Assembly: GCA_964386905.1 (NCBI GenBank)
Contig: CAYLUP010000002.1
Location: forward strand, 522-64,521
Length of the DNA: 64,000 bases
Origin: an uncultured Candidatus Saccharibacteria bacterium
GTDB lineage: Bacteria > Patescibacteriota > Minisyncoccia > Phycocordibacterales > UBA6899
Reading direction: 5' to 3'
Positions 3,488 through 60,611 of the stretch are shown piece after piece (position 1 is the first letter of the stretch; each line of letters begins with the position of its first letter). Under the pieces are notes generated by a model. That model was not told where the DNA came from. It ran no database searches and worked only from the letters and a program-made list of their open reading frames with translations. The position numbers and the translations under genes were made by a program.

Positions 3488-3563
3488 GAACTGAAGGGGA
3501 ACTGAAGGGGAGAACTGAAGGGGACAGGCACATTCAAGAACTGAAGGGGACAGGCACATTCAA
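3488..3563 (+). repeat. Tandem direct repeats at the left end of the IS: two 26-bp units (gaactgaaggggacaggcacattcaa at 3512-3537 and 3538-3563) preceded by two shorter gaactgaagggg units
   Basis: Seen directly in sequence; the last unit contains the left inverted repeat of the IS. Confidence 0.8.
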
Positions 3564-4354: not shown

Positions 4355-4504
4355 CTATTTATTTTTTGCATCCTGCTCGACAGGAGTCCTTTGTCACACT
4401 GTACAGGTATTCGGCATAGTTAAAATTTTTCCTTTGCTTGCATAATTCAATTTTTTCAGTAGTATTGCTCTTGGAATATTCTAAACAGAAGGGAGGTGAT
4501 ACAG

Positions 4505-10208: not shown

Positions 10209-10211
10209 CGG

Positions 10212-10372
10212 GAGCTGAAGGGGGCAGGCACAGTCAAAGTCCCCTTAAGTCCCTCTCAGCCCTGGAAAGCACTGTTCGGCTTCCAGGAGGGCAGATCGGT
10301 GTTCCAAAAACCAAGAAATTTGATTAGAACACGAATTGCAGGGTGATGGTGGTGCCTGTCCCCTCCAGTTTC
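10212..10372 (+). mobile_element. MITE-like internal-deletion derivative of the IS200-like element
   Basis: 10262-10345 is about 95 % identical to the last about 65 nt of tnpA plus its 3' flank (4245-4330); flanked by diverged copies of the IS inverted repeats (gagctgaagggggcaggcac at 10212; ggtgcctgtcccctccagtttc at 10351); no ORF. Confidence 0.6.
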
Positions 10373-23426: not shown

Positions 23427-23427
23427 T

Positions 23428-23452
23428 AACACGCCCGTTTGGGCGTGTTATG
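23428..23452 (+). terminator. Hairpin terminator
   Basis: aacacgcccgtttgggcgtgtt hairpin; downstream T-run is weak. Confidence 0.45.
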
Positions 23453-23460
23453 CTATATAT

Positions 23461-24510
23461 ATGATACACAGAATATGTTTTTGTTTCTCATTCTTCTTTT
23501 GTATGAGCATCGCATTTTTTGTTCCCGCTCAAACGCTTCTCGCTGCATCATTATTGCAGCTCTCTGACATGCTGTCTGCCCAACGCCCAAATGCTGAATC
23601 GAGTCATAGAATCCAGTTTCAAACTCCGACGGGTATTAATGCTCCTGGAGATACCATCGTCATCACCTTTCCTGCGGACTTTAATTTTACAGGCAAGGAT
23701 GCGACATTCGTAAATCTTTATCATGGTGCGACTGGCGGCGAAACAGAAGAGTATATTTCGACAACACCAACACTTGGATTTTGGGGCGCTGCTTTTTCTG
23801 GAACGCAGAATCGAGTGCTTACATTGACTCCTCCAGCTGATGGGGTGGGGCAAGCAGAGATTTTTGCGAATGAAATTGTCCGAGTAAGGTTAAATCCGAC
23901 TAACGCCCTTAATCCCTCGACTGCAGGAGACTATATCGTTGCCATCTCTGGCGGTTTTGGAGATACGGGAAGTATATTGGTCCCCATTATTAGTGATGAT
24001 CAGGTCTTCGTTTCTGCAACAGTTCCCCAAGCGCTTTCATTTTCAATTTCAGACAATAGTGTTGGTTTTGGTCCACTGTCTGCTTCTGTATCTCGTTATG
24101 CAACCGGAGATGGGACAGGGAGTGCTACTCCTGTCGTTGCGCATACAATAACCGCAAGCACCAATGCATCCGGTGGGTATAGTATTTCCCATGTGTCAGG
24201 GACGTTAACAAGCGGAGCGCATAGTATTGACGCCATTGGAGGAGTCCCATCAAGCCCAATTCCAGGATCAGAGCAGTTTGGAATTCGTGGAGACGCTGCG
24301 GGTGGAAAAGGAGTGATGTCAACACGGTATGGATCTGCTCAATATGCCCTCGATGCGAGTGGATTTCCAGATACTTTTGCTTATACTATGTTTGCAGGTC
24401 CAACTCCTGAGACAACGTATTCAATATATTATCTGGCAAATATTTCATCTGGTACCGAAGCAGGTGAATATGGTGCTCCTATAACCTATGTCGCAACTGC
24501 AATGTTTTGA
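23461..24510 (+). CDS. Secreted pilin-like protein, paralog 2 (N-terminal domain + SCPU-like C-terminal domain)
   Basis: Signal peptide; shares TPTG..A.DTI.ITFPADF.FT and ...SFSISDN..GFG...YLANIS.GTEAGEYGAPITYVATAMF with its neighbours. Confidence 0.55.
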   Translation: MIHRICFCFSFFFCMSIAFFVPAQTLLAASLLQLSDMLSAQRPNAESSHRIQFQTPTGINAPGDTIVITFPADFNFTGKDATFVNLYHGATGGETEEYISTTPTLGFWGAAFSGTQNRVLTLTPPADGVGQAEIFANEIVRVRLNPTNALNPSTAGDYIVAISGGFGDTGSILVPIISDDQVFVSATVPQALSFSISDNSVGFGPLSASVSRYATGDGTGSATPVVAHTITASTNASGGYSISHVSGTLTSGAHSIDAIGGVPSSPIPGSEQFGIRGDAAGGKGVMSTRYGSAQYALDASGFPDTFAYTMFAGPTPETTYSIYYLANISSGTEAGEYGAPITYVATAMF

Positions 24511-24592
24511 CATTATCCACATAGTGATGTGGATTTTATGTTATACTGAAATCAATAACATGTTCCATCATGTTGCGAGAAATTACTATACA

Positions 24593-25648
24593 ATGTTCTT
24601 CTTTATGATCAAAAAATATTCAGTATCTATCACGGCCCTTACACTTCTGGTGATTCTCTCTGGGTTACCGCAGTTTGTATTTGCTGCAGCACTCACAAAT
24701 CTTTCAGATACAATGTCTTCTGCAAAGATTAATACCGTATCGAGCCACGTCATTCGCTTTACAACGCCGACTGGTGCAAATGAAGCAACCGATACCATTA
24801 TCATTACTTTCCCAGCAGATTTTGATTTTACAGCAAAAGCTATTGGTTCAGTAACGTTTACACATGGCGCATCGACAGGCCTTGAAACAACTGAAACACT
24901 TGCCGCGGCTCCATCCGCTACTGCATGGGGGGCTGTCTTTTCGGGAACTGAAAATCGCATTTTAACACTCACAGCTCCAACAGATGGAACGGGAACTGCT
25001 GTTCTTGCCCCAGGAGATAAAGTTATTTTTACATACTCCAGCGCAAACTCTACAAATCCAAGTACTGCAAACTCCTACTCAGTTAGCATTGCGGGAACTT
25101 TTGGTGACACTGGTTCAATTTTGGTTAATGTTATCAATGATGACCAAGTTCTTGTTTCTGCAACTGTTCCACAATCACTGACCTTTAGTATCTCAGATAA
25201 CACAATTGGTTTTGGTTCATTAACTTCAGCATCGGCACGCTTCGCGACAGGTGATGCAAACGGGAGCGGAACAGAGACGGAAGCACATAATATTATTGTC
25301 GGAACGAATGCAGCAAATGGATACACGGTAAATCTTGCCGGTTCTACATTGACTTATGGTGGAAATACAATTACTGCGATTGGGGCAACAAACAGTGCAT
25401 CAACTCCAGGAAGCGAACAGTTTGGTTTGCGTATGAGTGCGTCTGGTGGGACTGGGGCAGTATCCGCACCATACGCAGCAGACGGATTCGCCTTTGACTC
25501 AGCGGCATTTCCTGATCAGATTGCATCTGCCGCGGGAGCATCTGCAAACACGACATACTCGGCACGCTATCTTGCAAACATCAGCCCATCGACTGAGGCT
25601 GGAGCGTATACTGCAACATTGACATATACTGCAACTGCAAACTTTTAA
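24593..25648 (+). CDS. Secreted pilin-like protein, paralog 3
   Basis: Start at internal Met (MFFFMIKKYS) giving a signal peptide; about 45 % identical to paralog 2 throughout; ends ...TYTATANF. Confidence 0.55.
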   Translation: MFFFMIKKYSVSITALTLLVILSGLPQFVFAAALTNLSDTMSSAKINTVSSHVIRFTTPTGANEATDTIIITFPADFDFTAKAIGSVTFTHGASTGLETTETLAAAPSATAWGAVFSGTENRILTLTAPTDGTGTAVLAPGDKVIFTYSSANSTNPSTANSYSVSIAGTFGDTGSILVNVINDDQVLVSATVPQSLTFSISDNTIGFGSLTSASARFATGDANGSGTETEAHNIIVGTNAANGYTVNLAGSTLTYGGNTITAIGATNSASTPGSEQFGLRMSASGGTGAVSAPYAADGFAFDSAAFPDQIASAAGASANTTYSARYLANISPSTEAGAYTATLTYTATANF

Positions 25649-36108: not shown

Positions 36109-36257
36109 TTTTTTGACTTATCCACATTTATTTTTCATGTGATATTGTATGCATCATCGAAGTGCGAGATAATAAAGATAGGAGTGGTGCATACATCACT
36201 CTGCTCGTCCGCTTTTGGTCGAAGCAGACTCTTTATCCATCAGCACATAAAAATATT

Positions 36258-36395
36258 ATGGCAGCAAAGAAGGTTGCAGCTAAGAAAGTTGCAAAGAAGC
36301 CAGTTGCAAAGAAGACTGTAAAGAAGGTTGTAAAGAAGGCAGTCAAGAAGGTTGCAAAGAAGGCAGTAAAGAAGGTGGCAGCAAAGAAGAAGTAA
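36258..36395 (+). CDS. Histone H1-like lysine/alanine-rich DNA-binding protein
   Basis: 45 aa MAAKKVAAKKVAKKPVAKKTVKKVVKKAVKKVAKKAVKKVAAKKK; strong terminator aaaagcccctcaggggctttttt follows at 36414-36439. Confidence 0.55.
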   Translation: MAAKKVAAKKVAKKPVAKKTVKKVVKKAVKKVAKKAVKKVAAKKK

Positions 36396-36595: not shown

Positions 36596-39106
36596 ATGGA
36601 TTTTATTAAGAATCTTTTTGCAGATACTGCTACCAAAGACCGTCGAAAACTTGAGCCGATCGTTGCAAAGATTAATGGCTTGGAAGATGACATAAAAAAA
36701 CTCACCCCAGGAGAGCTGAGGGAAAAAACTGTTGAGTTCAAAAAGCGTTTAGAAGAAGGGGAGACTGTTGATGGCTTGCTCCCCGAGGCTTTTGCGTGTG
36801 TCCGAGAGGCGTCGATTCGCACGCTCGGTTTGCGTCAATTTGATGTTCAGTTGCTCGGAGGGATTATCCTTCACCAAGGAGGCATACCCGAAATGCGCAC
36901 AGGAGAAGGAAAGACATTGGTCGCTGTCGCTCCAGTCTACTTGAATGCTCTTTCTGGAAAGGGCGTACATGTTGTTACTGTAAATGATTATCTTGCACGC
37001 CGCGATGCAGTGTGGATGGGTCAGGTGTATGATGCACTAGGTCTTTCTGTCGCAGTCATCAATCATGATACCTCGTATGTTTATGATCCAAGCCACAAGG
37101 AGGAGGATCAGGAGCGAGACGAAGTGGGTTCATTTCGCGTTGTGTATGAATTTCTTCGTCCTTGTACGCGAAAGGATGCATATGCGGCAGATATAACGTA
37201 TGGGACAAATAGTGAATTTGGTTTTGATTATCTTCGAGACAATATTAGCTATGATGTCAGAGAGCTGCGCCAGCGCGGGCACCATTTTGCTATTGTCGAT
37301 GAGGTTGACTCTATCTTGATTGACGAGGCAAGAACACCACTGATTATTTCTGCTCAAGCAGAAGAATCAGACGCGTTTTATGCACAATTTGCAGAGATTG
37401 CATCTCATTTACGTGAAGAAGATCATTACACTGTTGACGAAAAGCACAAGGCTATTCAGCTCACCGAAGCAGGTATGTCGAAGGCTGAAGAATTGCTTGG
37501 CGTGGAAAATATTTATACGGAAAAGGGAGTGAAGTATGTTCATCATCTTGAAACTGCTGTCCGTGCGAAAGCGTTATTTTTACATGACAGAGAATATGTT
37601 GTTCAGCATGGAGAAGTGGTTATAGTTGATGAATTTACGGGTCGCTTGCAGCCAGGACGACGTTGGTCTGAGGGGCTTCACCAGGCGATTGAGGCAAAAG
37701 AGCGCGTGCCAGTACAGCGAGAGAGTCGCACAATGGCATCGATCACGTACCAAAACTACTTTAAGCTGTACGACAAATTGTCGGGCATGACGGGTACTGC
37801 GGCAACAAGCAGTGAGGAGTTTTTGAAGATCTATGGGCTCAATGTTATTCCAGTTCCGCCGAATAAGCCATCGGGCCGCATCGACTTGGACGACCTTATT
37901 TTCCAAACAGAGAAGGGGAAGTTTATGGCAATCGCAAAGCGGGTCAAGGAACTTCATGAAAAAGGACAGCCTGTGCTGATCGGTACTGTTTCCGTTGAAA
38001 ACAATGAGCGCCTTTCTCAGTTTCTTGAAAAAGAAGGTATTCCGCACACCGTGCTGAATGCAAAGAATCATGAACGAGAAGGTGAAATCGTTGCACAAGC
38101 AGGGAAAAAGGGTGCTGTCACAATTGCTACCAACATGGCAGGTCGCGGTGTCGACATTAAGCTTGGTGGAAATCCGTACACAAAGGAGGAATATGAAGAA
38201 GTCCTTGCACTTGGCGGACTGGCAGTAATTGGTACTGAGCGTCATGACGCGCGACGCATTGACAATCAGCTTCGTGGGCGTTCCGGACGTCAAGGTGATG
38301 CTGGTTTGACTCAGTTTTATGTCTCAATGGAAGATTCGCTGATGCGTATTTTTGCGACAGACACTGTGAAGTCGATGCTCGGTCGGTTTGGTGTTCCTGA
38401 AGATGAACCGATCGCAATGGGAATGATCACTAGAGCATTAGAGAATGCACAGAACAAGATTGAAGGATTTAACTTTGATGCTCGCAAGCATGTGTTTCAA
38501 TATGACAACGTCGTGAATGTGCAGCGACAGGCAATGTATGCACGTAGACATAAGTTGCTCACCGGAGAACTTCTTGATGTTGAACAGTACTTCATTCAAT
38601 TGTGTGAGGAGGGCGGAGAACAAGGAAAACTTGCACTTGAAGCCGCGAAGCGACACATCGATGCTGTGGGTGGCGAGAAATTCTATACAATGATTCGTCG
38701 TTTGTGCTTGCAAGTGAATGACATGCACTGGGTAGATCATCTTGAAATGATGGATTACTCTCGTTCCTCGGTAAATCTTCGTGCATATGGACAGCGAGAT
38801 CCGCTGGTGGAGTATAAGCGTGAGGCGCTTCGCATGTATCGAGATATGGAGGCTTCGATCGCAACACAGATCCTCGATGTTGTTCCGCGTTTTGTTATTG
38901 AAGAAGATGATGAGGCAAAAAAACGACGACTTGCTGAAGAAGAGAAGGCGCGAGAATCTATCGTTCGCCAAATGTCTCAGGCGAGTGCTCCAGTTTCTGG
39001 AGAGGCTGGTCCTTCTCATGTTGTCAAAGTTGAGAAAATTGGACGCAATGATCCTTGCCATTGTGGGAGTGGAAAGAAATATAAGCACTGTCACGGAAAG
39101 GAATAG
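36596..39106 (+). CDS. secA: Preprotein translocase ATPase SecA
   Basis: 836 aa; DEAD-like motor and PPXD; C-terminal zinc-binding CHCGSGKKYKHCHG. Confidence 0.95.
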   Translation: MDFIKNLFADTATKDRRKLEPIVAKINGLEDDIKKLTPGELREKTVEFKKRLEEGETVDGLLPEAFACVREASIRTLGLRQFDVQLLGGIILHQGGIPEMRTGEGKTLVAVAPVYLNALSGKGVHVVTVNDYLARRDAVWMGQVYDALGLSVAVINHDTSYVYDPSHKEEDQERDEVGSFRVVYEFLRPCTRKDAYAADITYGTNSEFGFDYLRDNISYDVRELRQRGHHFAIVDEVDSILIDEARTPLIISAQAEESDAFYAQFAEIASHLREEDHYTVDEKHKAIQLTEAGMSKAEELLGVENIYTEKGVKYVHHLETAVRAKALFLHDREYVVQHGEVVIVDEFTGRLQPGRRWSEGLHQAIEAKERVPVQRESRTMASITYQNYFKLYDKLSGMTGTAATSSEEFLKIYGLNVIPVPPNKPSGRIDLDDLIFQTEKGKFMAIAKRVKELHEKGQPVLIGTVSVENNERLSQFLEKEGIPHTVLNAKNHEREGEIVAQAGKKGAVTIATNMAGRGVDIKLGGNPYTKEEYEEVLALGGLAVIGTERHDARRIDNQLRGRSGRQGDAGLTQFYVSMEDSLMRIFATDTVKSMLGRFGVPEDEPIAMGMITRALENAQNKIEGFNFDARKHVFQYDNVVNVQRQAMYARRHKLLTGELLDVEQYFIQLCEEGGEQGKLALEAAKRHIDAVGGEKFYTMIRRLCLQVNDMHWVDHLEMMDYSRSSVNLRAYGQRDPLVEYKREALRMYRDMEASIATQILDVVPRFVIEEDDEAKKRRLAEEEKARESIVRQMSQASAPVSGEAGPSHVVKVEKIGRNDPCHCGSGKKYKHCHGKE

Positions 39107-41173: not shown

Positions 41174-41251
41174 AAACGGGAATTCCCGTTTTTTGTTTGC
41201 CTCAGTTTGCGTTGTGTTGCGTGCTTGAACGAACGGTCACGTTTTCGTGGT

Positions 41252-42640
41252 AAAATGGTTATATCTATGATGGACAGAACGCATCCGTTTCGTATTTTTT
41301 TTACTGTTTTTCTTCCGGTATTGATAATTACCAGCGCTTTGTTGATTATCCCGCAGTACTCTTTTGCGGTGTCTTGTACTGCCGATGTAGGAAACGATCG
41401 CACGCTTTTGGAACAGCAAATGAAAGCATGTGATGAAGAAGTTGTGGAACTGAATAAGACAATTGATGGTCTTCTGAAGCGTGGAAAAACTTATAATAAT
41501 GAAATTGAGCTTCTCCGTGCACGTATTCAAAAAGCGCAATCGAACATAAGGGCGAAAAATGTACAAATTTCTCGATTGTCAGAAGATATTTCAAAGAAGA
41601 CAAGCGAGGTCAATCGATTGTCAAATAAGCTTGATCGTGAACGGCAGTCGCTCGCACAACTCGTTCGAAGGACGGCAGAATATGATCAAGTCTCTCTTGT
41701 TGAAGCCTTGCTTTCTGGAGACAACATCTCCGGATTTTTCCAGGACGTTGATGAGTTTGTGTCTCTCCAAGAAGCGTTAAGTCATTCAGCACAAACATTA
41801 AAGCAACTCCGAAAAGAGACAGAAGATGTCCGAACAAGTCTTGAGGAGAAAAAAGATAAAGAGCTTGATGTGAAGATTGAGCTCGAGAGGGCGCGTACGG
41901 AGCATGAGCAAAATCAAAAAGAACAACAAAAACTATTGGCCCTGACGAAAAATAAAGAAAAGGAATTTCAGAATGTGCTTGCAGATAGAAAGAAACGCAT
42001 TGCAGCGATTCGTGAAGCCTTGTTTAAACTTCAGGACGACACGCAGATTTCTTTTGGACAGGCATACGATTATGCGTTAGAAGCAGAAAAAGATCTTGGA
42101 ATTCGGCCCGCATTTCTTCTCGCAATTTTTTCACAAGAATCAAATTTTGGAAAATTCGTAGGAGGCTGCGTTGTTACAGATGAGCTTGGAAATGGTAAAC
42201 GTATTAAATCTGGAGAAAAGCTGACTCGCGTGATGGCTGCTCCACGAGATACAGTGCCATTTAAGAAAATCGCGGATGCATTAGGAAAAGATATGTACAG
42301 CACACCAGTCTCATGCCCTCTTTCATATGGATATGGAGGCGCTATGGGTGCTGCACAATTCATTCCATCAACCTGGATTAACTTTGTTCCTCGGGTACAA
42401 AAACTTGTTGGATCATACCCAAATCCATGGAACCCACGTCACGCTTTCATTACTTCAGCCATGTATCTTACTGATCTTGGCGCCGGAAAGCGTACTCCAA
42501 GTGCAGAGCGTACTGCTGCTTGTAAGTATTATTCTGGTGCAGCGTGTGGCGTGCGAACTGGTTCCGCGGCGTACGGTGATTCTGTGCTAAGGAAAGCGGA
42601 GACGATTCAGAAGACGATGATCGATCCGATGAATCAATAA
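41252..42640 (+). CDS. Membrane-anchored coiled-coil protein with C-terminal lytic transglycosylase (SLT-like) domain
   Basis: TM, about 250-aa coiled coil, then AIFSQESNFG (catalytic Glu-Ser) and AMGAAQFIPSTW motifs. Confidence 0.65.
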   Translation, partial: KMVISMMDRTHPFRIFFTVFLPVLIITSALLIIPQYSFAVSCTADVGNDRTLLEQQMKACDEEVVELNKTIDGLLKRGKTYNNEIELLRARIQKAQSNIRAKNVQISRLSEDISKKTSEVNRLSNKLDRERQSLAQLVRRTAEYDQVSLVEALLSGDNISGFFQDVDEFVSLQEALSHSAQTLKQLRKETEDVRTSLEEKKDKELDVKIELERARTEHEQNQKEQQKLLALTKNKEKEFQNVLADRKKRIAAIREALFKLQDDTQISFGQAYDYALEAEKDLGIRPAFLLAIFSQESNFGKFVGGCVVTDELGNGKRIKSGEKLTRVMAAPRDTVPFKKIADALGKDMYSTPVSCPLSYGYGGAMGAAQFIPSTWINFVPRVQKLVGSYPNPWNPRHAFITSAMYLTDLGAGKRTPSAERTAACKYYSGAACGVRTGSAAYGDSVLRKAETIQKTMIDPMNQ

Positions 42641-42699
42641 AAGCAGCGAAAGCTGTTTTTGTTTTGGTGTATAGGGGAAGGTCTAAAGGGTATGAGGAA

Positions 42700-42960
42700 A
42701 AGGAGAAGTGAGCAGTGATAAGTGATGAGTGAATAGGAAGTCATGAGTCATGAGAAGAAAGTGCCCAGTATACAGAATAAAGTATTGTCATTGCGACAAC
42801 CTCGAGTCTTCGAGAGTTGGTGGCAATCCAGGACCGCATTTTCTATCCACTTACCACTATCCACGACATTCGTCCTGGATCGCCACACATTTGCGCAAAG
42901 CCGAAATCGTTTGCAATGACAATACGAAATACAATCCTGGATCACTCCTGAATCATAGTC
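42700..42960. repeat. Intergenic repeat cluster: (GTCATGA)n heptads at 42741-42757, a 59-bp element GTATTGTCATTGCGAC...GGTGGCAATCCAGGACC at 42782-42840, and an inverted partial copy at 42868-42925 forming a long imperfect palindrome
   Basis: Direct inspection: arms GTATTGTCATTGC / GCAATGACAATAC are perfect 13-mers; the element recurs at 58157-58215. Confidence 0.7.
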
Positions 42961-43198
42961 AAAAATAATAATTTTCTCCTTATTCAGGACAGGCTACTAG
43001 TCATCATAAAGCCATGACTTCCGGAATGACATACATATACAACGAGTATAAAGCCGATATTATTTGCAATAATAGTGCACGTTATGCTTCTTGTGGGTGG
43101 AACTCGCAACTTTATAAATCTTTAATCTGAAAGCACAAATCTTTCATTTTTCACGTTTCTCTATTCTCTATTCTCTATTTTTCAGGTATCATTACCAT

Positions 43199-44284
43199 AT
43201 GAACATTGGTGAAGGGAAGAAGGTATTTGTAGGCATGTCTGGAGGCGTAGACTCCTCTGTTGCTGCCCTCTTACTCAAACGTGCCGGGTATGATGTGACC
43301 GGTGTGTTTATTAAGGTATGGGATGCCCCTTGGCTTCCTTGTGACTGGAGAGAGGAGAGGAGAAGTGCCATGCGTGCTGCTGCAAAGATAGGAATTCCTT
43401 TCCGTACACTCGATCTTGAAAAAGAGTACAAGGAAGGCGTGGTTGATTATATGATTTCTGAATATGTTGCAGGGCGTATTCCAAACCCAGATGTCTTTTG
43501 TAATAAGAGAGTAAAGTTTGGAGGTTTTTTCGAGTATGCCATGAAGAGTGGAGCAGATTTTGTTGCCACTGGACATTATGCTCGTGTGGTTGAAAAAGAC
43601 GGAGAACGCCGGCTTGCGACTGCGAAAGACATACAAAAAGAACAAAGTTATTTTCTTTTTAATATTTCGAAAGAGGCACTCCAGAAGACAATGTTTCCAA
43701 TTGGAGATATGAAGAAATCTGAAGTACGTACAACTGCTGAAGATGCGGAACTGGTGAATGCAGACAAAAAGGATAGCCAGGGCATTTGTTTCCTGGGGCC
43801 AGTTTCAATTCAAGAGTTTCTTTCACATTATGTACAGACGGAGCCAGGTCACGTGCTCAATGAAAATGGAGAACATATTGGTGAGCATGATGGGGCACTT
43901 TTTTACACTATTGGACAGCGTCATGGCTTTCGTATCTTTGGAGAAAGTGATCGGGCTCTACCGCAATACGTTGTCTCGAAGAACATGCAAGATAATACTA
44001 TTACCGTAGGGCCACGAAGAGATGGGCTCACAAGTGCTGTTGCGCAAGGGTGTGTATTAAAAGATTGTAATTTTCTCGCGCCGGGAGATGCGTGGCACGA
44101 TGGAGAGTTGGTTATTCGTTACCATGGAGAACGAATACCTTTGGCGTCGACAACAATACTTGATAGTAAGAGTGTGCGTTGTGTTTTTCTTCACCCAGTG
44201 ACGGATATTGCTCTTGGCCAGGCGGGAGTGTATTATGTTGGTGAAGAGTGTTGTGGGGGTGGAATAATTTCAGAAGTCTTGTGA
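43199..44284 (+). CDS. mnmA: tRNA-specific 2-thiouridylase MnmA
   Basis: PP-loop VGMSGGVDSSV; conserved Cys; 361 aa. Confidence 0.9.
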   Translation: MNIGEGKKVFVGMSGGVDSSVAALLLKRAGYDVTGVFIKVWDAPWLPCDWREERRSAMRAAAKIGIPFRTLDLEKEYKEGVVDYMISEYVAGRIPNPDVFCNKRVKFGGFFEYAMKSGADFVATGHYARVVEKDGERRLATAKDIQKEQSYFLFNISKEALQKTMFPIGDMKKSEVRTTAEDAELVNADKKDSQGICFLGPVSIQEFLSHYVQTEPGHVLNENGEHIGEHDGALFYTIGQRHGFRIFGESDRALPQYVVSKNMQDNTITVGPRRDGLTSAVAQGCVLKDCNFLAPGDAWHDGELVIRYHGERIPLASTTILDSKSVRCVFLHPVTDIALGQAGVYYVGEECCGGGIISEVL

Positions 44285-48750: not shown

Positions 48751-50550
48751 ATGATAGATTCAATGACGATGCGGTCACGTTTTTTGGAGTTTTTTAAACA
48801 ACGTGGACACGCAATTTTGCCTTCTGCATCACTGATCCCAGAGAATGACCCATCTGTGCTATTTAACACTGCAGGCATGCAGCCGTTGGTACCATATCTG
48901 TTGGGACAACCGCATCCACAAGGAACACGTCTCGCAAATAGTCAGAAGTGTGTTCGCACTGTCGATATCGACGAGATCGGAGACAATACTCATGCAACTT
49001 TTTTTGAGATGCTTGGGAACTGGTCGCTCGGAGACTACTTTAAACAAGAAGCTATTTCTTGGAGTTTTGATTTCCTCACCAACATAGAATATGGACTTGC
49101 GCTTGATCCAAAAAAGCTCTATGTGACTGTTTTTGGCGGGAATGATGACGCGCCACAGGATGATGAGGCATATGCAATTTGGGCAAAACATTTTTCCTCT
49201 GTAGGCATCAATCCGGAAGGGCACATTTTCTATATGAAGACACTTCCAAATGGAAAAGAGCCGAACTGGTGGAGTCCTGGAGATAACGGCCCGTGCGGTC
49301 CAGATTCAGAAATGTTTTACAATGTTTCTGGTAAGGACTTGGGGAATCTCACCCATGCAGAATTTGTTGCTGCAGATGATCGGCAAGATATCGTTGAAAT
49401 TTGGAATGATGTGTTCATGGAGTATGAAAAGAAGGACGGAAAAGTTGTCGGGAAGCTCGCAAAACAAAATGTTGATACGGGTTCAGGGTTAGAGCGTGTT
49501 TTGATGGTGATGCAGGGGAAGAACAATATCTTCGATACAGACATTTTTGCACCTATCATGACATATACACGGACGATTACGACTGGTGAACGAAGTGCAC
49601 GGATTATTGCCGACCATATGCGTACTGCAATTTTCTTGATTAGTGATGGTGTTCGTCCAAGTAATTCTGATCAAGGCTATATTCTCCGCCGCTTGATTCG
49701 TCGTGCGGTATTACGTACAACGTCGAAAACACTTTCCCGTGACGCCGTTGTAGATATTGTGCGTATTATTTCCGAAAAGTACATTGGAGTGTATGACAGT
49801 ATTTGTGAGCAGCAAAGGGAAATTGTGGATGTTATTGACGGCGAGTCAAAGAAGTTTGAGCGTTCTATCGAACAAGGCTTGAAGCAATTTGAACGTATCG
49901 CAAAACACGGATTAACGATCTCCGGTGATCAGGCATTCGATCTCTATCAATCCTATGGTTTTCCATTTGAGGTGACCAGGGAGGTCGCTCATGACAGAGG
50001 CATGACTATAGATGAGGAAGGATACCGCATTAAACTTGCAGAACATCAGGCAAAATCACGTGCTGGTGCAGAGCAGAAGTTTAAGGGTGGTCTTGCGGAT
50101 CATAGCGATAAGGTGGTGAAGTATCACACGGCAACGCACTTGTTGCACCGTGCGCTCCATATCGTACTCAACGAGGATGCAACGCAGAAGGGGTCAAATA
50201 TTACCGAAGAGCGTTTGCGTTTTGACTTTGCCTATCCTACAAAGATGACTCCAGAAGAAATCAAGAGAGTAGAAGATATCATCAACGAGGTTATCGCAAA
50301 GGATCTTCCTGTGTTCTATGAAGATGTGCCAAAGGAAGAAGCAGAGCGCCGTGGCGCACGTGGACTCTTTGGAGATAAATATGGAGACATCGTCCGTATT
50401 TATGAAATTGGAAAAGGTGATGAGCGTTTCTCGATTGAATTCTGTGGTGGACCGCACGTCGAGCGCACTGGTGTGCTGGGTCATTTTCGTATTACGAAAG
50501 AGGAAGCATCATCTCAGGGGGTACGAAGGATCAAGGCAGTGCTAGAGTAG
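48751..50550 (+). CDS. alaS: Alanine--tRNA ligase, short form (599 aa; lacks C-Ala domain)
   Basis: Class-II AlaRS N-terminus (FLEFFKQRGH, FNTAGMQP, WGGP-like), editing-domain HTATHLLHRAL (HxxxH) and C-terminal CGGPHV...VRRIKAV. Confidence 0.85.
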   Translation: MIDSMTMRSRFLEFFKQRGHAILPSASLIPENDPSVLFNTAGMQPLVPYLLGQPHPQGTRLANSQKCVRTVDIDEIGDNTHATFFEMLGNWSLGDYFKQEAISWSFDFLTNIEYGLALDPKKLYVTVFGGNDDAPQDDEAYAIWAKHFSSVGINPEGHIFYMKTLPNGKEPNWWSPGDNGPCGPDSEMFYNVSGKDLGNLTHAEFVAADDRQDIVEIWNDVFMEYEKKDGKVVGKLAKQNVDTGSGLERVLMVMQGKNNIFDTDIFAPIMTYTRTITTGERSARIIADHMRTAIFLISDGVRPSNSDQGYILRRLIRRAVLRTTSKTLSRDAVVDIVRIISEKYIGVYDSICEQQREIVDVIDGESKKFERSIEQGLKQFERIAKHGLTISGDQAFDLYQSYGFPFEVTREVAHDRGMTIDEEGYRIKLAEHQAKSRAGAEQKFKGGLADHSDKVVKYHTATHLLHRALHIVLNEDATQKGSNITEERLRFDFAYPTKMTPEEIKRVEDIINEVIAKDLPVFYEDVPKEEAERRGARGLFGDKYGDIVRIYEIGKGDERFSIEFCGGPHVERTGVLGHFRITKEEASSQGVRRIKAVLE

Positions 50551-50552
50551 TC

Positions 50553-50610
50553 ATGAGTCATGAGTTATGAGTCATGAGAAAAAACACCATCATGTGATGG
50601 TGTTTTTTAT
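50553..50610 (+). repeat. (GTCATGA)n heptad repeats followed by terminator hairpin acaccatcatgtgatggtgt+T6
   Basis: gtcatgagtcatgagttatgagtcatgag, then a perfect 20-nt palindrome and T-run. Confidence 0.7.
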
Positions 50611-50646
50611 TGCCAGTGTTGGTCTGGTATGTACAATATAAGTGAT

Positions 50647-50997: not shown

Positions 50998-51063
50998 TCG
51001 CATTCATAGTGTTTCACTTTCCTCCTTGCCTAATTTGATGGATTGTGTTACATTGTCCACACT

Positions 51064-51297
51064 ATGAAGACGGATATCCACCCTAAATTTAATGAGCAGG
51101 TAAAGGCAGCTTGTGCATGTGGTGCAGAGGTTGTTGTTGGTTCAACTCTCAAAGAAATCAACGTTGAAATCTGTTCACACTGCCACCCCCTCTTTACTGG
51201 TACTGAGAAGGTTATGGACACAGCAGGCCGCATGGAGAAGTTCAAGGCTCGTGTAGCTGCGGGAACAGCGAAGAAGGCTACAGTCAAGAAGAAGTAA
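51064..51297 (+). CDS. rpmE: 50S ribosomal protein L31
   Basis: MKTDIHPKFNEQVKAACACGAEV...CSHCHP...; Zn-ribbon Cys pattern. Confidence 0.9.
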   Translation: MKTDIHPKFNEQVKAACACGAEVVVGSTLKEINVEICSHCHPLFTGTEKVMDTAGRMEKFKARVAAGTAKKATVKKK

Positions 51298-51300
51298 GAA

Positions 51301-51410
51301 AACAGTCATGAGTCATGAGTCATGAGTCAGTAGTGTCGCAAAGCGGCTCTGATGATTCATGCTTGGCTTATGGCTTTTTCATTTCTCATGTCTACATACT
51401 CATGACTGAT
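51301..51410. repeat. (GTCATGA)n repeats in inverted arrangement (gtcatgagtcatgagtcatgagtcag ... ctcatgactgatgac) between rpmE and prfA
   Basis: Direct inspection; inverted heptad blocks about 50 nt apart can form a long hairpin. Confidence 0.65.
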
Positions 51411-52404
51411 GACTACTATTATGGAATACGATACAGCACAATTTAAAGAGGATTATCGCACCAAGTATTTAGCAGAAGACTTGGAGCGCATGCAACGCGA
51501 ACGCGCAGAGCTCGACGTGCTTCTTTCTGATCAAGAAATGGCAGATCTTGCAAGAGAGGACGCTACGACACTTGATGCCGCAATGAAGGAATTGTACGAG
51601 CGGCTATTGGCAATTCAAAAGGCCGCAGAAGAGGAAGAGGAGATCCCTCGAGAGCTCGTCCTTGAGGTTCGCGCAGGTGTTGGTGGTGAAGAGGCTGCAA
51701 TTTTTGCGGAAGACCTTGCACGCATGTATCAAATGTATGCAAAAGAAAAAGGTTGGAGATTTGATGTTATTGATGAAAGCCGTGCTGAAATGGGCGGGTA
51801 TAAAGAAGCATCGTTCGAAATCACAGGGAATGAATGTTATGAATTACTCCGGTATGAGACTGGTGTGCATCGTGTTCAGCGCGTTCCTGCAACTGAAAAG
51901 TCCGGACGCATCCATACCTCTACCGCCGCTGTTCTCGTGCTTCCGATTCGAAAGAAGTCCAAAGTGCAGATTAATCAATCAGACGTTGAGATGCAGTTTA
52001 CCCGTGCTGGTGGGGCTGGAGGTCAGAATGTGAATAAGGTGGAGACAGCTGTGCACTTATTTCATAAACCATCCGGAATTCATGTCCACTGCGCTGTTGA
52101 GCGTTCTCAGTTGAAGAATCGTGAAAAAGCATTTACTATTCTTGCTGCAAAGCTCGAGCAGCTTGAGGATGAAAAGAATGCTGCAAAAAATGCAGAACTT
52201 CGTTCCGCTGTAGGCTCTGGAGATAGGTCTGAGAAGATTCGTACGTATAATGTCCTTCAAGATCGTGTGACTGATCACCGAATAAAGGAATCGTGGCATG
52301 GCATAGAGTCCATCCTTGCAGGTGGTGTTGGCAAGATTGTTGAGACTGTGCGTGAGCGTGCACTTGCGGGGACGATGGGTGACGGTTCTGATGATGACGA
52401 ATAA
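51409..52404 (+). CDS. prfA: Peptide chain release factor 1
   Basis: GGQ motif ([11 protein letters not shown]), PAT tripeptide anticodon motif (RF1-type), 331 aa; terminator agccgctcgagggagcggctttt follows. Confidence 0.9.
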
Positions 52405-54923: not shown

Positions 54924-55059
54924 GATATGGTAGAGGGGGGGGATGGGGTAAGGGATTTTGTCACAAAAAATATCTCCACACCCTGTTCCCCATAGTCCTA
55001 ATCTCGTCTTTCATTCATCCTCTAGCCAAAAATTTATTTTTGTGTATAATACCCACATT

Positions 55060-55132
55060 GCCACCTTAGCTCAGTTGGTAGAGCAACGCTTTTGTAAAGC
55101 GAAGGTCGTCAGTTCAAGTCTGACAGGTGGCT
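55060..55132 (+). tRNA. tRNA-Thr (anticodon UGU); no encoded CCA
   Basis: Cloverleaf: acceptor GCCACCT/AGGTGGC, D-arm GCTC-AGTTGGTA-GAGC, anticodon stem ACGCT/AGCGA with loop TTTGTAA, T-arm GTCAG-TTCAAGT-CTGAC, discriminator T; upstream -10 tataat; downstream hairpin acgccttggcgt+T5. Confidence 0.85.
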
Positions 55133-55224
55133 CTACGAAAAATACGCCTTGGCGTGTTTTTGTTTACAACTCGCATGCGACAAAGAGTGTTCACGGGACT
55201 CCCTTCTTTCGCTTTCTTTCATCT

Positions 55225-56016
55225 ATGATATTATCGTCATATATGTATTCACGAGAGCAAATTGGGCTCGATGCAACACTTCCAGGAAAAGGGAACGAGC
55301 GCGGTTCTATGCATCCAGTATCCATTATGATGCGCGATATCACTGAGATTTTTGGGACAATGGGATTTAGTATCGCTGATGGTCCAGAAATAGAAACAGA
55401 GTATTACAATTTTGATACCTTAAATATTCCAAAAGATCACCCCGCACGAGATATGTGGGATACGTTTTGGTTGAAGGATAAACAGGGGGTAGAGAAACTC
55501 TTGCTGCGTACACACACATCCCCAGTGCAGATTCGGCACATGGAGAAAAAAGGTGCGCCGATTCGTATTATTGCACCAGGAAAAGTCTTTCGTTACGAAG
55601 CAACAGATGCGACTCACGAAGCGCAATTCCATCAATTCGAGGGATTGATGATTGGCAAGAAAGTCTCTCTCGCAGACTTGAAGGGTGTCCTTGAACTCTT
55701 TTTTGCACGCCTCTTCGGACGTCCTATGCAAGTGCGTTTTCGCCCATCATATTTTCCATTTACCGAGCCATCCGTTGAGATTGATATTGGGTACACGAAT
55801 GCGAAAGGAAAAGTTGAGAAATGGATCGAGGTTATGGGTGCAGGTATGGTGCATCCGAATGTCCTTCGTGCTGGAGGTATTGACCCAGAGCAATATCAGG
55901 GCTTTGCTTTTGGTGGAGGAGTCGATCGCTTTGTGATGTTGAAGTGGGGCATCCCTGATGTGCGCATGTTGTACTCTGGGGACCTGAGGCTTATTGATCA
56001 GTTTGATACTATCTAG
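55225..56016 (+). CDS. pheS: Phenylalanine--tRNA ligase alpha subunit (short form)
   Basis: Class II motifs: HPARDMWDTFW, FRPSYFPFTEPS, GAGMVHPNVL...GFAFGGGVDRFVM; the track ORF upstream part reads through the tRNA gene, so the start is placed after it. Confidence 0.85.
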   Translation: MILSSYMYSREQIGLDATLPGKGNERGSMHPVSIMMRDITEIFGTMGFSIADGPEIETEYYNFDTLNIPKDHPARDMWDTFWLKDKQGVEKLLLRTHTSPVQIRHMEKKGAPIRIIAPGKVFRYEATDATHEAQFHQFEGLMIGKKVSLADLKGVLELFFARLFGRPMQVRFRPSYFPFTEPSVEIDIGYTNAKGKVEKWIEVMGAGMVHPNVLRAGGIDPEQYQGFAFGGGVDRFVMLKWGIPDVRMLYSGDLRLIDQFDTI

Positions 56017-56018
56017 TT

Positions 56019-57980
56019 ATGCTTATCTCTAAAAATTTACTTCAAACCTATTTCGACAAACCACTCCCATCTGCGGATGTGATTGCAGCAAAGCTGACTG
56101 CGCACAGTTTCGAAATTGAAGGTATTGAAAAAAAGAAAAAAGACACCTTGATTGATGTGAAGGTGTTGCCAAATAGAGCACACGACTGTCTTTCTCATCG
56201 AGGGATTGCGCGTGAGCTCGCAGCTGTGTTAAGTATTTCTCTCAAAAAGGAGAAACAACAAAAACTTCCAAAGGGAAGTAAGAAATCACCTTTGATTGAT
56301 GTCGATATCAAAGATAAGCGTTGCGTTCGTTACGCATCTTTGGTGTTATCTCAAGTTTCGGTGAATGAGTCTCCAAAGTGGCTTAAGGAGGCAATGGAGA
56401 CACTTGGTGCTCGATCGATCAATAATATTGTCGACGCAACAAACTATGTCCTCTATATGCTCGGCCAGCCACTACATGCATTCGATTACGACAAGCTCGT
56501 TGGAGCAAAAATTGTTGTTCGTGGGGCAAAAGAAGGTGAATCTATGACGACGTTGGATGGCAAGGTGATCGCGCTTGAAAAAGAGACTTTGGTTATTGCT
56601 GATAAAGAAGGCGTATTGGCGATTGCTGGCGTGAAGGGCGGGACAAAGGCAGAACTCACAAAAGAAACAAAAACGATTGCCATTGAAGCGGCCAGTTTTG
56701 ATGGTGCAACGGTGCGAAAGGCTGCTCAGAAGTACAATTTGCGCACGGATGCTGCAAAGCGTTTCGAGCAAGGTCTCACACCTCATCTTGTTGATGAGGC
56801 GCTTGCTGTTGTTGCTCAGCTTATTATCGATATTGCTGGCGGAAAGCAAGTTGTTGTCGGATTTCCTCAAATCAAGGGGAGAGACCTTCCTCCGCAGCGT
56901 TTTGTGTCGATCACACTGAAACAAGTGAATCGTATTATTGGTGCACCATATACCGCAAAGGAGATTGCGCAGATTTGGAAACGCTTAGGTTTTGCGGTGG
57001 CAACAACGACAAAAGCTGATGATGTACTTTGGAACGTTGCAGTTCCTCATGACCGTTTGGATATTACCCTGAAGGAGGATTTGGCTGAAGAAGTATCTCG
57101 TCTTGTTGGTCTTGAAGGATTACAGGGGACACTCCCAGAAGAACCACTTGCTGTTGCCGAGAGAAACATATTTTGGGAATTGCGCGACAGGGCACGTGAA
57201 GTATTGTTGGGTGCTGGGTTTTCGGAAGTGTATACGTATGCATTTAATGCCTATGGTGAAATTGAACTTCAGAATCCGCTTGCTTCAGATAGAAAGACTC
57301 TCCGAAACAATCTTTCACACGGTCTTCGTGCGGCAGTAACGGAGAATTTGAAGCATCGAGAAGAAGTTCGCATCTTTGAATTTGGTTCCATTTTTGGAAA
57401 AACAAAAGGGAAGGTGGTCGAAACACGCTCTCTTGGTGTGGAGATGGGTTTCCAGAAAAGAAAGCAGGCCCAAGTGAAAGAGGATTATGTGTGGCTGAAG
57501 GGCGTCCTGAACGCACTTGGAAAGGCCTGTGGCCTCCCTCCGTTTAACTATGTTGAAGGGGGCGGAGAAATAGCTGCTCAAGTTTACGTAAAAGACGTAC
57601 TTGTTGGTATGTTGAAGGTGCAAGGTTTTGAAATTGATTTTGATCTTCTTGTCTTAGCTGCGACACGAGAGAAGCAGCGAATGTATGCTGTTCCAAGTAA
57701 GTATCCGAAAGTAGTTCGTGATGTTGCATTGTGGGTACCAATGGAGGTCCGTGTTGGCGGCATCGAGGCACTAATCAAGAAGGTGATGGGTGATCTTGTC
57801 GTTGACCTGAAACTTTTTGATGTCTTTGAAAAGCCAGAAGAGCACAAGAAGAGTTTTGCTTTTCGTATGACACTGCAAAGCAATGATCATACGCTTTCAG
57901 ACGAAGAAGCAAATGAGGTTGCACACAGAGTTGTTACAGCACTGAAAGAGGCTGACGAGCGGTTTGATGTCAGAAGCTAG
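56019..57980 (+). CDS. pheT: Phenylalanine--tRNA ligase beta subunit (short form)
   Basis: 653 aa; B3/4 and B5 domains and C-terminal FDX-like domain; immediately follows pheS. Confidence 0.85.
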   Translation: MLISKNLLQTYFDKPLPSADVIAAKLTAHSFEIEGIEKKKKDTLIDVKVLPNRAHDCLSHRGIARELAAVLSISLKKEKQQKLPKGSKKSPLIDVDIKDKRCVRYASLVLSQVSVNESPKWLKEAMETLGARSINNIVDATNYVLYMLGQPLHAFDYDKLVGAKIVVRGAKEGESMTTLDGKVIALEKETLVIADKEGVLAIAGVKGGTKAELTKETKTIAIEAASFDGATVRKAAQKYNLRTDAAKRFEQGLTPHLVDEALAVVAQLIIDIAGGKQVVVGFPQIKGRDLPPQRFVSITLKQVNRIIGAPYTAKEIAQIWKRLGFAVATTTKADDVLWNVAVPHDRLDITLKEDLAEEVSRLVGLEGLQGTLPEEPLAVAERNIFWELRDRAREVLLGAGFSEVYTYAFNAYGEIELQNPLASDRKTLRNNLSHGLRAAVTENLKHREEVRIFEFGSIFGKTKGKVVETRSLGVEMGFQKRKQAQVKEDYVWLKGVLNALGKACGLPPFNYVEGGGEIAAQVYVKDVLVGMLKVQGFEIDFDLLVLAATREKQRMYAVPSKYPKVVRDVALWVPMEVRVGGIEALIKKVMGDLVVDLKLFDVFEKPEEHKKSFAFRMTLQSNDHTLSDEEANEVAHRVVTALKEADERFDVRS

Positions 57981-58017
57981 GAAACAGAGAGTCATGAGTT
58001 GTTGGAAAGAAATAACT

Positions 58018-58373
58018 CATGATTTATGATTTAGGATTTATGAATTATGAATTGTCATTGCGACGGCCCCGATTTAGGGTATGGGGTAAGGGGTATAGGG
58101 TATGGGAAGAACAAGAAAGAAGATAGGAGAATTACGTATTCAGAATTAAGAATTACGTATTGTCATTGCGACGGCCCCGAGTCTTCGAGGGACGGTGGCA
58201 ATCCAGGACTGCATTATTCTTTTAATCTTACATCAACAATTGAACATGTTTTCTCAAACAACCAACACAAAATGTGTTGGTTGTTTTCATATATACCTCA
58301 GTATGATTACACCCACTCTTCCGGTGTTGGTTTCGGGATTATATTCATAAATCATAAATCCTTAATCCTAGAT
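58018..58373. mobile_element. MITE-like element with imperfect about 25-bp terminal inverted repeats enclosing copies of the TGTCATTGCGAC...GGCAATCCAGGAC element and a G-rich (GGGTAT/GGGTAA) tract
   Basis: Left tcatgatttatgatttaggatttatgaa versus right ttcataaatcataaatccttaatcctag (inverse complements); internal copies at 58050-58085 (partial) and 58157-58215 match 42782-42840; the track ORF 58047-58376 repeats CHCDGP because of these copies. Confidence 0.5.
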
Positions 58374-58535
58374 TAATTTTGGAAATTCATGGCTATACAC
58401 GGCCATAATTTCGACATTTTTATCCCCACGTCAAGTTTGTAGATGGGTCGTAAAAATGGTAAAATAAGATATATTTATAGGCATTTTTGGCTGTCTTTTC
58501 ATGGGCAATTCTCATGACGAACAACTGACGATTAA

Positions 58536-60611
<2,076 letters not shown>

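Follow-up and report, generated by a model that had tools for sequence, protein, structure and literature searches.

A 64,000-nucleotide (nt) stretch of contig CAYLUP010000002.1 (the window) is gene dense, has a G+C content of about 44% with a positive GC skew, and carries nearly all of its genes on the plus strand. Proteins named Candidatus Lloydbacteria share 72 to 76% identity with its GyrB, and those named Paceibacterota share about 70%, which makes the organism a Patescibacteria bacterium of the Parcubacteria type. Four intergenic spacers, beside an SLT-domain gene and mnmA, alaS, rpmE, and pheT and gyrB (Table 1), contain short repeats of two kinds: tandem heptanucleotides (heptads) and, in the first and last of these spacers, a hairpin-forming unit. 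The unit is probably a long-apex member of the superfamily of repetitive extragenic palindromic sequences (REPs) that bear a CGTC or TGTC tag, with the heptads being separate simple repeats. An initial annotation of the window had described heptads and a 59-bp element recurring by several housekeeping genes, and every feature that it listed was found again to within a few bases and far above chance.

The repeat unit and its copies

The 59-bp element corresponds to a structured unit of 49 to 50 nt in which a TGTC tag and a CCA(GGAC) tail enclose an ATTGC/GCAAT stem; a GA/GYG internal loop separates this stem from an inner hairpin that varies. The window holds three full copies, comprising an inverted pair with its tags outside (units A and C) and a singleton (unit B), together with one truncated copy and perhaps one degenerate copy. 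The full copies share TGTCATTGC ... GGCRATCCAGGAC around a variable interior, with GGCRATCCAGGAC occurring three times in the window without a mismatch, and the core of the family can be written as ATTGCGAG...GCAATCCA. Recurrence of the element at 42782-42840 and 58157-58215, previously put at about 85% identity, was measured at 88% (52 of 59 positions), and all seven differences fall within the inner hairpin. A partial copy announced at 58050-58085 was located at 58053-58075, where it matches the first 20 to 23 nt.

The palindrome at 42782-42925 has the perfect 13-bp outer arms originally described (42782-42794 and 42913-42925) and, in addition, 15-bp inner arms (42820-42834 and 42872-42886), but its inverted copy proves to be complete rather than partial, forming a third unit that lies on the minus strand (42872-42921). 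Unit C has the tag, stem, and tail of unit A but reads GCGAT, which yields a T·G pair, and has a different, poorly pairing interior. The dimer folds at -51 to -60 kcal/mol (z about -6.5), and the predicted fold of unit A was obtained both as RNA and as DNA.

Distribution of the family

An exact-pattern scan of one genome per species returned 21 loci in Gamma-, Alpha-, and Betaproteobacteria, several Patescibacteria, a Saccharibacteria metagenome-assembled genome (MAG), and an Absconditabacteria MAG. About 4 of the 21 lie inside long open reading frames (ORFs) without a hairpin and look like chance matches, near the number estimated beforehand. The remaining loci have a lineage-specific interior hairpin, and an inverted copy very often comes after the unit. 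On a crude ORF map, 27 of 42 matches to a covariance model of the unit (see below) are intergenic, the others being mostly in short dubious ORFs or likely due to chance.

The family also occurs in plasmid records. A search of PLSDB with a 33-nt family member from a pattern locus (L013) matched 26 plasmid records, including at least 40 places in the Novosphingobium resinovorum replicon pSA1 and a match in pNL2 of N. aromaticivorans, a species named as CGTC positive in PMC3733652; other matches were to Methylobacterium, Methylosinus, Psychrobacter, Halomonas, and Nostocales plasmids. At the Novosphingobium sites, CGTCATTGCGAGCGAAGCGAAGCAATCCAG precedes a 10- to 20-nt spacer and an inverted copy, with the consensus CGTCATTGCGAGCG(A/T)(A/C)GCGAAGCAATCCAG. 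Their short copies run ATTGC, GA, a minimal apex GC-GAA-GC (GCGAAGC), GAA, and GCAAT, which, apart from the small size of the apex, is the plan of the window unit.

In IMG/VR, 43 viral-contig loci (contigs of 51 to 74% G+C that are predicted to be viral and could be prophage or host fragments) hold 73 copies, mostly as dimers. These loci (L111 to L153) carry CGTC REP dimers, up to five per 13 kb, between phage-like structural genes; the ORFs bounded by REPs look like phage structural genes, and no transposases were found among them. Because the family sits between such genes at 43 loci, phages or prophages are a possible vehicle for its passage between lineages.

The apex CGAGTCTTCGAG is common to the window and a Moraniibacteriota locus (L017) and is nearly matched in another Patescibacteria locus (L006), a shared sequence that suggests a candidate-phyla subfamily of the REP. 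The covariance model had no matches in 590 kb from 84 other Parcubacteria-like loci, and a metagenome scan for the window-specific variant (TAT plus the unit) likewise returned none. A full-text literature search for the literal sequences and for peptides of spurious ORFs recovered only unrelated primer matches.

Conservation of the fold

Alignment of 18 units with RNAalifold yielded three helices (GUC/GAC, AUUGC/GCAAU, and the inner helix), with compensatory changes at all six pairs of the inner helix. A covariance model (R1) built on these pattern-derived units and run on the window and the loci gave 53 matches, many outside the pattern selection; with filters off, its matches in the window were the three full units and a doubtful split copy at 42928-43037. 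In the 53-copy alignment, 91.5% of cells pair, compared with 24 to 60% when partners are slid, and the covariation score of 0.248 (versus 0.081 in shuffles) was reached by none of 500 shuffles. G·T pairs outnumber A·C pairs by 17 to 3, indicating that one defined strand folds. Alignment columns 11-12/96-97 are A-U and U-A in 52 to 53 of the 53 copies, CCA follows the stem in 51 to 53 of them (all window copies included), and both CGTC and TGTC tags are present among related copies. The initial annotation had raised the questions of whether copies are confined to the window sites and whether they share a covarying structure: the unit is present in many genomes and has a conserved fold with covariation in its inner hairpin.

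Table 1. Repeats, hairpins, and repeat-bearing spacers in the window (TRF, Tandem Repeats Finder)
Feature	Position	Strand	Remarks
Repeat spacer 1			SLT-domain gene (41207-42640) to mnmA (43199-44284)
Terminator-like hairpin and T-run	42639-42665	+	directly after SLT-domain gene stop, upstream of repeats; -13 kcal/mol, z -5.7
Degenerate heptad run GAGAAGT/GAGCAGT/GATAAGT/GATGAGT..., ending in AGTCATG x2.3	42695-42754	+	TRF rows 42706-42732 and 42739-42754
Head-head REP dimer, tags outside	42782-42925		144-bp imperfect palindrome
REP unit A	42786-42834	+	inner hairpin CAACCTCGA-GTCT-TCGAGAGTTG, tail CCAGGAC; covariance model 56 bits, E 1e-13
Dimer spacer, 37 bp	42835-42871		CTATCCA x3.1 heptads at 42843-42864 (TRF)
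REP unit C, inverted partner of A	42872-42921	-	covariance model 50.3 bits, E 5e-12
Possible degenerate or split REP	42928-43037	-	tail-like ATCCAGGAT at 42934-42942, head-like TGTCATTCC at 43023-43031; weak, 10 bits, E 1.2
TTCTCTA x3.3	43157-43179	+	20 nt upstream of mnmA start codon
Repeat spacer 2			alaS (48751-50550) to small methyltransferase-like gene
(AGTCATG) x4.3	50549-50578	+	overlaps alaS stop (TAG); followed by hairpin 50579-50611
Intrinsic-terminator-like hairpin	50579-50611	+	after the array at the alaS stop; -16.4 kcal/mol, z -5.8
Repeat spacer 3			rpmE (51043-51297) to release-factor gene (from 51409)
(AGTCATG) x3.7, degenerate complementary arm, CTTTTTC	51304-51378	+	7 nt after rpmE TAA; long hairpin, -45 kcal/mol, z -4.8
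Inverted degenerate array	51385-51414		reaches release-factor ORF start
Repeat spacer 4			pheT (56019-57980) to gyrB (58548-60611)
Hairpin AGTCATGAGTTGTT / AATAACTCATGATT	57989-58025	+	10 nt after pheT TAG; about 1.5 GTCATGA units per arm; -17.9 kcal/mol, z -5.9
ATGATTT x4.6	58019-58050	+	TRF
Truncated REP	58053-58075	+	5' 20-23 nt, TGTCATTGCGACGGCCCCGA, then heptads
TAGGGTA x4.1 (58075-58103), AGAATTA x4.0 (58128-58155)	58075-58155	+	TRF
REP unit B, singleton	58161-58209	+	covariance model 59.9 bits, E 8e-15
Terminator-like hairpin	58256-58286	+	downstream of REP unit B; -18.3 kcal/mol, z -6.1
TCATAAA/ATCATAA	58343-58373	+	inverted partner of 58022-58052, 87% complementary; pair brackets REP-containing spacer

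Heptad repeats

With up to one mismatch, GTCATGAGTCATGA occurs seven times in the window, compared with an expectation of 0.10, and none of 100 shuffles reached seven. The sites lie at 42740-42753, 50550-50577, and 51305-51325, with an inverted degenerate site at 51400-51413; TRF reports AGTCATG x2.3 at 42739, x4.3 at 50549, and x3.7 at 51304 and CTCATGA x4.3 at 51385. The (GTCATGA)2-4 arrays originally assigned to 42741, 50553, 51301, and (inverted) about 51389 are all present, but 57990 holds only about 1.5 units (AGTCATGAGTT), which form one hairpin arm with AACTCATGATT. The arrays had been said to lie always just after a stop codon, which is true of those at 50549, 51304, and 57990 but not of that at 42740, which a terminator-like hairpin separates from a stop 100 nt upstream.

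About nine heptads populate the spacers: GTCATGA, AAGTGAT, CTATCCA, TTCTCTA, ATGATTT, TAGGGTA, AGAATTA, TCATAAA, and TGAGCAG. Sixteen of the 41 TRF arrays in the window have a period of 7, and 12 of these are intergenic, whereas 30 dinucleotide shuffles produced a mean of 1.0 and a maximum of 5 period-7 arrays. Among array pairs within 1 kb, inverted arrangements outnumber direct ones by 11 to 4; those in the window include 58019-58050/58343-58373 and 51304-51329/51385-51414. Several inverted pairs form strong predicted hairpins, some of which are followed by U-runs.

Period 7 is also the commonest in the 84 related loci (74 TRF rows, versus 22 for period 6 and 35 for period 8), and period-7 repeats are frequent in the Saccharibacteria MAG. 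In relatives, (AGTGAGA)n runs from the pheS stop, (CTTCTTA)n extends as far as the pheT start, and the release-factor gene has (CTTCTCA)5 immediately next to its start. The orthologous rpmE-prf spacer of a relative has (GGGAATA)n and (CTTCTCA)n in place of (GTCATGA)n, and the orthologous spacers in three related loci (L022, L024, and L108) carry other heptads. Because orthologous spacers carry different units, the position of the heptads is reused and their sequence is not. The best account is that they are probably period-7 simple-sequence repeats driven by slippage, with incidental or secondary use as hairpin arms being possible.

Heptad arrays also lie in frame within mnmA in at least eight Parcubacteria-like metagenomic loci, each with its own heptad and always in one variable loop between the ATGHYAR and KDQSYFLW motifs (L041, 4369-4393; L047, 4387-4418; L082, 4372-4390; L053, 4374-4389; L101, 4415-4438; L065, 4398-4429; L092, 4425-4444; and L046, about 4370-4440). 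The array in L046 is an inverted heptad pair (GGGTTTA.../...CCCAAAC), and the window mnmA has none.

A gene flanked by heptads was seen in a relative with 86% GyrB identity (L024, and the same in L025), where a 103-aa 23S_rRNA_IVP gene (PF05635) lies between pheS and pheT. In L024 it is bracketed exactly by (AGTGAGA)x4.3 at 7013-7042 and its near reverse complement (CTTCTTA)x4.4 at 7451-7481. This gene looks like a cassette with heptad arms, and the window has no such gene at that place.

Relation between heptads and REPs

Treating the heptads and the 59-bp element as one family, as the initial annotation did, is not supported, since heptads occur in related genomes without REPs and the 590 kb of related loci gave no REP match. 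The two are unrelated repeat classes that colocalize in a few long spacers. They could instead be one composite element, or products of one mechanism, in which inverted arrays are the arms of the element or are made at insertion. An arrangement of heptads, REP(s), and reverse-complement heptads is present at 58019-58373 and in the Saccharibacteria MAG (L018, AAAGGGC...GCCCTTT around two REPs), the spacer of the REP dimer itself consists of heptads, heptads follow immediately where the REP at 58053-58075 is truncated, and the whole 57986-58385 region folds with a z of -7.8. We nevertheless find a composite element improbable: heptads are abundant in the 590 kb of REP-free related loci, Proteobacterial REPs and most other loci lack heptads, the heptad sequence differs by site, and inverted heptad arms, when looked for at the first site, were absent. 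Both kinds of repeats may simply settle in spacers of a length that is rare in this genome.

Spacers in related genomes

Synteny was compared through protein look-ups of relatives. The pheT-gyrB spacer of a relative with 96% GyrB identity contains heptads other than those of the window, as well as a TGTC-tagged palindrome of another kind, TGTCATCCCGGA...TCCGGGATCC. The 86%-GyrB relative has a 106-aa minus-strand ORF in that spacer, a GDSL-lipase gene in the SLT-mnmA spacer, and a 244-aa ORF in the alaS-rpmE interval. The distribution of the REP is patchy and changes fast. The window spacers were considered as decayed copies of these genes (the GDSL lipase and the 106- and 244-aa ORFs), an idea dropped on finding no residual similarity in the window. 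A metagenome scan with an MnmA query returned only relatives of 53% identity or less, giving no empty-site comparison for the first site.

In the pheT-gyrB spacer of L022, the 96%-GyrB relative, a second kind of TGTC-tagged palindrome, TGTCATCCCGGAATTTGTCCGCTTTGGGGCAAATATCCGGGATCCGAGAG, lies at about 768-818 and has no match to model R1. The head-like TGTCATTCCGG at 43021-43031 on the minus strand of the window resembles it.

These comparisons bear on an alternative in which REP units and heptad hairpins serve primarily as cis-acting RNA elements for the genes upstream, such as 3'-untranslated-region stabilizers against exonucleases, terminators, or processing stems, and are kept by selection and not by mobility. 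Units A and B do lie on the coding strand, downstream of co-directional genes; unit B, between the pheT stop and a terminator-like hairpin, would be transcribed, and PMC3733652 argues that many REPs are. The excess of G·T over A·C pairs fits RNA as well as single-stranded DNA, and, with U-rich runs at their ends, the heptad hairpins at 51304-51378 and 57989-58025 are possible terminators. But the dimer at 42786-42921 comes after a strong terminator-like hairpin, and the orthologous spacers of close relatives lack the element or hold other repeats or genes, indicating that the REP is not needed for these housekeeping genes. Gene-specific regulation also leaves unexplained a core that is common across phyla and phage contigs. 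An RNA role of this kind is, in our judgment, unlikely.

At the Rfam gathering threshold, the whole window yields nothing but a tRNA, and at E values of up to 10 the best match in 42600-43200 is a spurious microRNA hairpin (24 bits versus a threshold of 88), so the earlier suggestion of a small structured RNA found no match in either interval. The parallel suggestion of a termination or stability element is plausible for some heptad hairpins only and unlikely for the REP dimer, which sits downstream of a terminator-like hairpin; the REP units themselves have no U-run. A hairpin followed by a U-run at a gene end is clear at 42639-42665, 50579-50611, and 58256-58286. A terminator consensus scan of the window called none of these hairpins, and a sigma-70 consensus scan was likewise uninformative.

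Search for a mobilizing enzyme

A gene at 3594-4310 on the plus strand encodes a Y1/HUH protein of 238 aa (Pfam Y1_Tnp, E 5e-16) with NHWH and YQGRYKS motifs and a score of 72.7 bits against NCBIfam REP_Tyr_transpos, just under the cutoff of 80. Judged from these matches, it is an HUH Y1 transposase like those of the REP-associated tyrosine transposases (RAYTs) or the 'TIRYT' genes. Inverted GAACTGAAGGGGACAGGCAC repeats of 20 to 26 nt flank it (3488-4354) and are tandemly reiterated upstream; they contain GGGGACAG, which fits the GGGGWSAS motif reported for 'TIRYT' genes in PMC3733652. Six kilobases away, at 10211-10361, is a deletion derivative of about 150 bp that is 96% identical and consists of the repeat, the last 70 nt or so of the gene, and the repeat.

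Because its flanks are GAACTGAAGGGGACAGGCAC repeats and not REPs, the gene provides no cognate RAYT-REP pairing. PMC3733652 describes Y1 genes in CGTC-positive species that are not flanked by CGTC units, an arrangement like that in the window. Among all fetched loci, neither the RAYT-like protein (by tblastn) nor the repeat that flanks it was found anywhere but in the window, and no gene family recurred beside REP copies in the 21 genome loci.

The deletion derivative at 10211-10361 is a genuine precedent within the window for the idea, half of the REP/MITE label in the initial annotation, that the 42782-42925 palindrome is a conventional miniature inverted-repeat transposable element (MITE), that is, a deletion derivative of a DDE-transposase insertion sequence with terminal inverted repeats, the other copies being solo ends. 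The palindrome has inverted ends with perfect 13-bp arms and a MITE-like size. Each arm, however, is an independently folding unit that is also found alone (unit B), and it is the unit with its covarying internal hairpin, not the dimer, that is conserved across phyla. No direct target-site duplication is seen by the arms at 42782 and 42925, and no transposase gene recurs by the copies in the 21 genome loci or between the viral-contig copies. A conventional MITE is thus not supported and appears highly improbable, whereas the REP half of the label fits the 59-bp element, with its dimer and singleton. Four other candidates (attC, dif/Xer sites, CRISPR repeats, and group II intron ends) were set aside without a formal test, since the sequence lacks the motifs that define them.

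Other features of the window

Two plus-strand ORFs, at 58047-58376 (109 codons, with no Pfam match) and 42750-42968 (72 codons), run through the REP and heptad spacers. They are probably artifacts of the repeats that are liable to be annotated by gene callers, and short ORFs likewise overlie the REPs in L009 and L006. A tRNA-Thr gene (anticodon TGT) at 55060-55133 on the plus strand falls within the mechanically listed pheS ORF (54958-56016); the true pheS start is downstream of the tRNA, because the Pfam match begins at residue 104.

Repeats of other kinds occur within coding sequences. The interval 19566-25648 contains a 1,286-aa ORF with internal direct repeats of about 1.6 kb (70 to 75% identity), followed by two paralogous ORFs with a common 75-nt motif; the first two ORFs tested had no Pfam match, and the group is possibly a large repetitive surface protein family. 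A 12/24-nt periodic repeat at 36249-36395 encodes a Lys/Ala-rich (AKKVAAKK-like) tract in a short ORF and looks like a histone-like or ribosomal-type basic tail. This ORF sits upstream of an 836-aa gene (36596-39106) that, by synteny with L108, is likely secA.

Proposed mechanism and significance

We propose that two independent repeat classes, both ordinary and either selfish or neutral, have accumulated in a few long spacers of a Patescibacteria (Candidatus Lloydbacteria-like) chromosome. One strand of the REP folds through a short GTC/GAC closing helix, the 5-bp ATTGC/GCAAT helix, a conserved purine-rich internal loop in which GA faces G-Y-G or GAA, and an apical hairpin that varies and covaries, with an unpaired TGTC tag and CCA tail. 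The element, present between co-directional genes as inverted head-head (REPIN-like) dimers and as singletons, would be nonautonomous, its single-stranded hairpin being recognized by a trans-acting protein, most plausibly a HUH/Y1-type nuclease. By analogy with GTAG REPs and RAYTs, it may spread by copy-out or copy-in, and phages may carry it between lineages. The heptads, in turn, are probably generated and reshaped by replication slippage; they turn over fast and occupy the intervals that separate stop codons, terminators, and start codons. Since inverted pairs are frequent among them, some may double as hairpin arms, including terminator-like ones.

A more speculative possibility, and a long shot, is that the inverted heptad arrays of Patescibacteria, alone or bracketing TGTC REPs, are the footprint of an undescribed hairpin-based process of single-stranded-DNA insertion or expansion that reshapes spacers and inserts in frame into the surface loops of essential genes such as mnmA. 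REP-positive and REP-negative siblings would then expose the protein acting on CGTC REPs, possibly the enzyme encoded at 3594-4310.

Several consequences follow from placing a structured CGTC-type REP in a Patescibacteria genome of roughly the 1-Mb class. Since relatives lack the REP at the same loci, comparing gene contents of REP-positive and REP-negative genomes could shortlist the protein involved, and the conserved three-helix fold (tag, ATTGC/GCAAT, GA/GYG loop, and freely varying hairpin) is a concrete substrate for binding and cleavage assays. That Proteobacteria, Patescibacteria, and viral contigs have this fold in common hints at horizontal carriage. The repeats give rise to spurious ORF calls and hypervariable spacers, and annotators of candidate-phyla genomes should mask them.

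Comparison with known systems

In REPIN-RAYT systems, said to have been described by Nunvar in 2010 and by Bertels and Rainey in 2011, GTAG-type REPs are reportedly mobilized by RAYTs. The window resembles these systems in its two inverted hairpin units with a short spacer, its intergenic location, the presumed action as single-stranded DNA, and the presence of a RAYT-like gene. It differs in that the head of the unit is TGTC/CGTC and not GTAG and in that the RAYT-like gene is flanked by GAACTGAAGGGGACAGGCAC repeats and not by the REPs of the window.

Heptanucleotide repeats are over-represented in bacteria, for which polymerase slippage has been proposed (Mrazek 2007, as cited in PMC4679880; PMC4692102), and known examples include the cyanobacterial short tandemly repeated repetitive (STRR) sequences, GGGAATC in Xanthomonas, and TAACTGA in Beggiatoaceae (PMC4679880; PMC4692102). 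The window heptads are like STRR sequences and long simple sequence repeats in forming arrays of two to five units, in their intergenic position by start and stop codons, in their variability between relatives, and in their occasional inverted arrangement. In contrast, their unit sequences differ (GTCATGA, GAGAAGT, and ATGATTT, among others), and there are many per genome without a single dominant one. In the literature library searched, no report of heptanucleotide repeats from Patescibacteria was found.

The closest counterpart of the 49- to 50-nt unit is the CGTC-tagged REP superfamily (families CGTC-1 to CGTC-4) of Di Nocera, De Gregorio, and Rocco (2013; PMC3733652), with which we compared it by way of the text description in that paper and the Novosphingobium copies. 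According to the paper, these REPs are 20 to 40 bp long and have an unpaired terminal tag (CGTC, with TGTC and CCTC as variants), an 8- to 9-bp stem whose first two positions are complementary A-T residues, a 4- to 5-nt loop, and a 3-nt unpaired tail with the consensus CCA. They are mostly head-head dimers with their tags outside and spacers of 20 to 100 bp, occupy intergenic regions flanked by unidirectional or convergent genes, mostly close to where the upstream ORF ends, and number from tens to thousands of units per genome; Neisseria dRS3 and Rickettsia RPE-4 and RPE-6 are said to be included. They are not associated with transposase genes and were reported to lack a transposase of their own and to spread in an unknown way (PMC3733652).

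Set against the assignment of the window unit to this superfamily are, first, its dimensions: it is 49 to 50 nt long, with a 5-bp helix, a 2-by-3 internal loop, and a 6- to 10-bp hairpin, and its longer tail, CCAGGAC, can pair with the GTC of the tag. Unit C on its own folds poorly. The search pattern itself accounts in part for the invariant tag and tail of the seed sequences, and copies found only by the model read (C/T)GTCATTGCGAG-hairpin-CG(Y/A)(G/A)GCAATCCAG, with a less constant GAC extension. The copy count covers the 64-kb window only (three full units plus one or two fragments), the sole Y1 transposase gene there has unrelated flanking repeats and no enzyme is tied to the REP, and the analysis turned up neither a transposition event nor an empty site or target-site signature. 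Finally, the colocation of heptads and REPs in the window and in the Saccharibacteria MAG could be a real link.

Because the architecture is the same apart from the sizes of stem and loop, membership of the unit in the CGTC/TGTC superfamily remains the reading that we favor. TGTC heads all three full units and the truncated one; the stem ATTGC...GCAAT (or GCGAT) opens with A-T and T-A; and the tail of the window copies is CCA. The units at 42786-42834(+) and 42872-42921(-) form a dimer with tags outside and a 37-bp spacer, accompanied by one singleton, and most other loci are arranged in the same way. Both REP sites lie between co-directional genes without a flanking transposase gene, and the core ATTGCGAG...GCAATCCAG is common to the window and Novosphingobium copies. 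Patescibacteria lie outside the five phyla listed in PMC3733652. Both kinds of repeats are already known; here they occur in a phylum for which our search of the literature found no published report of them.

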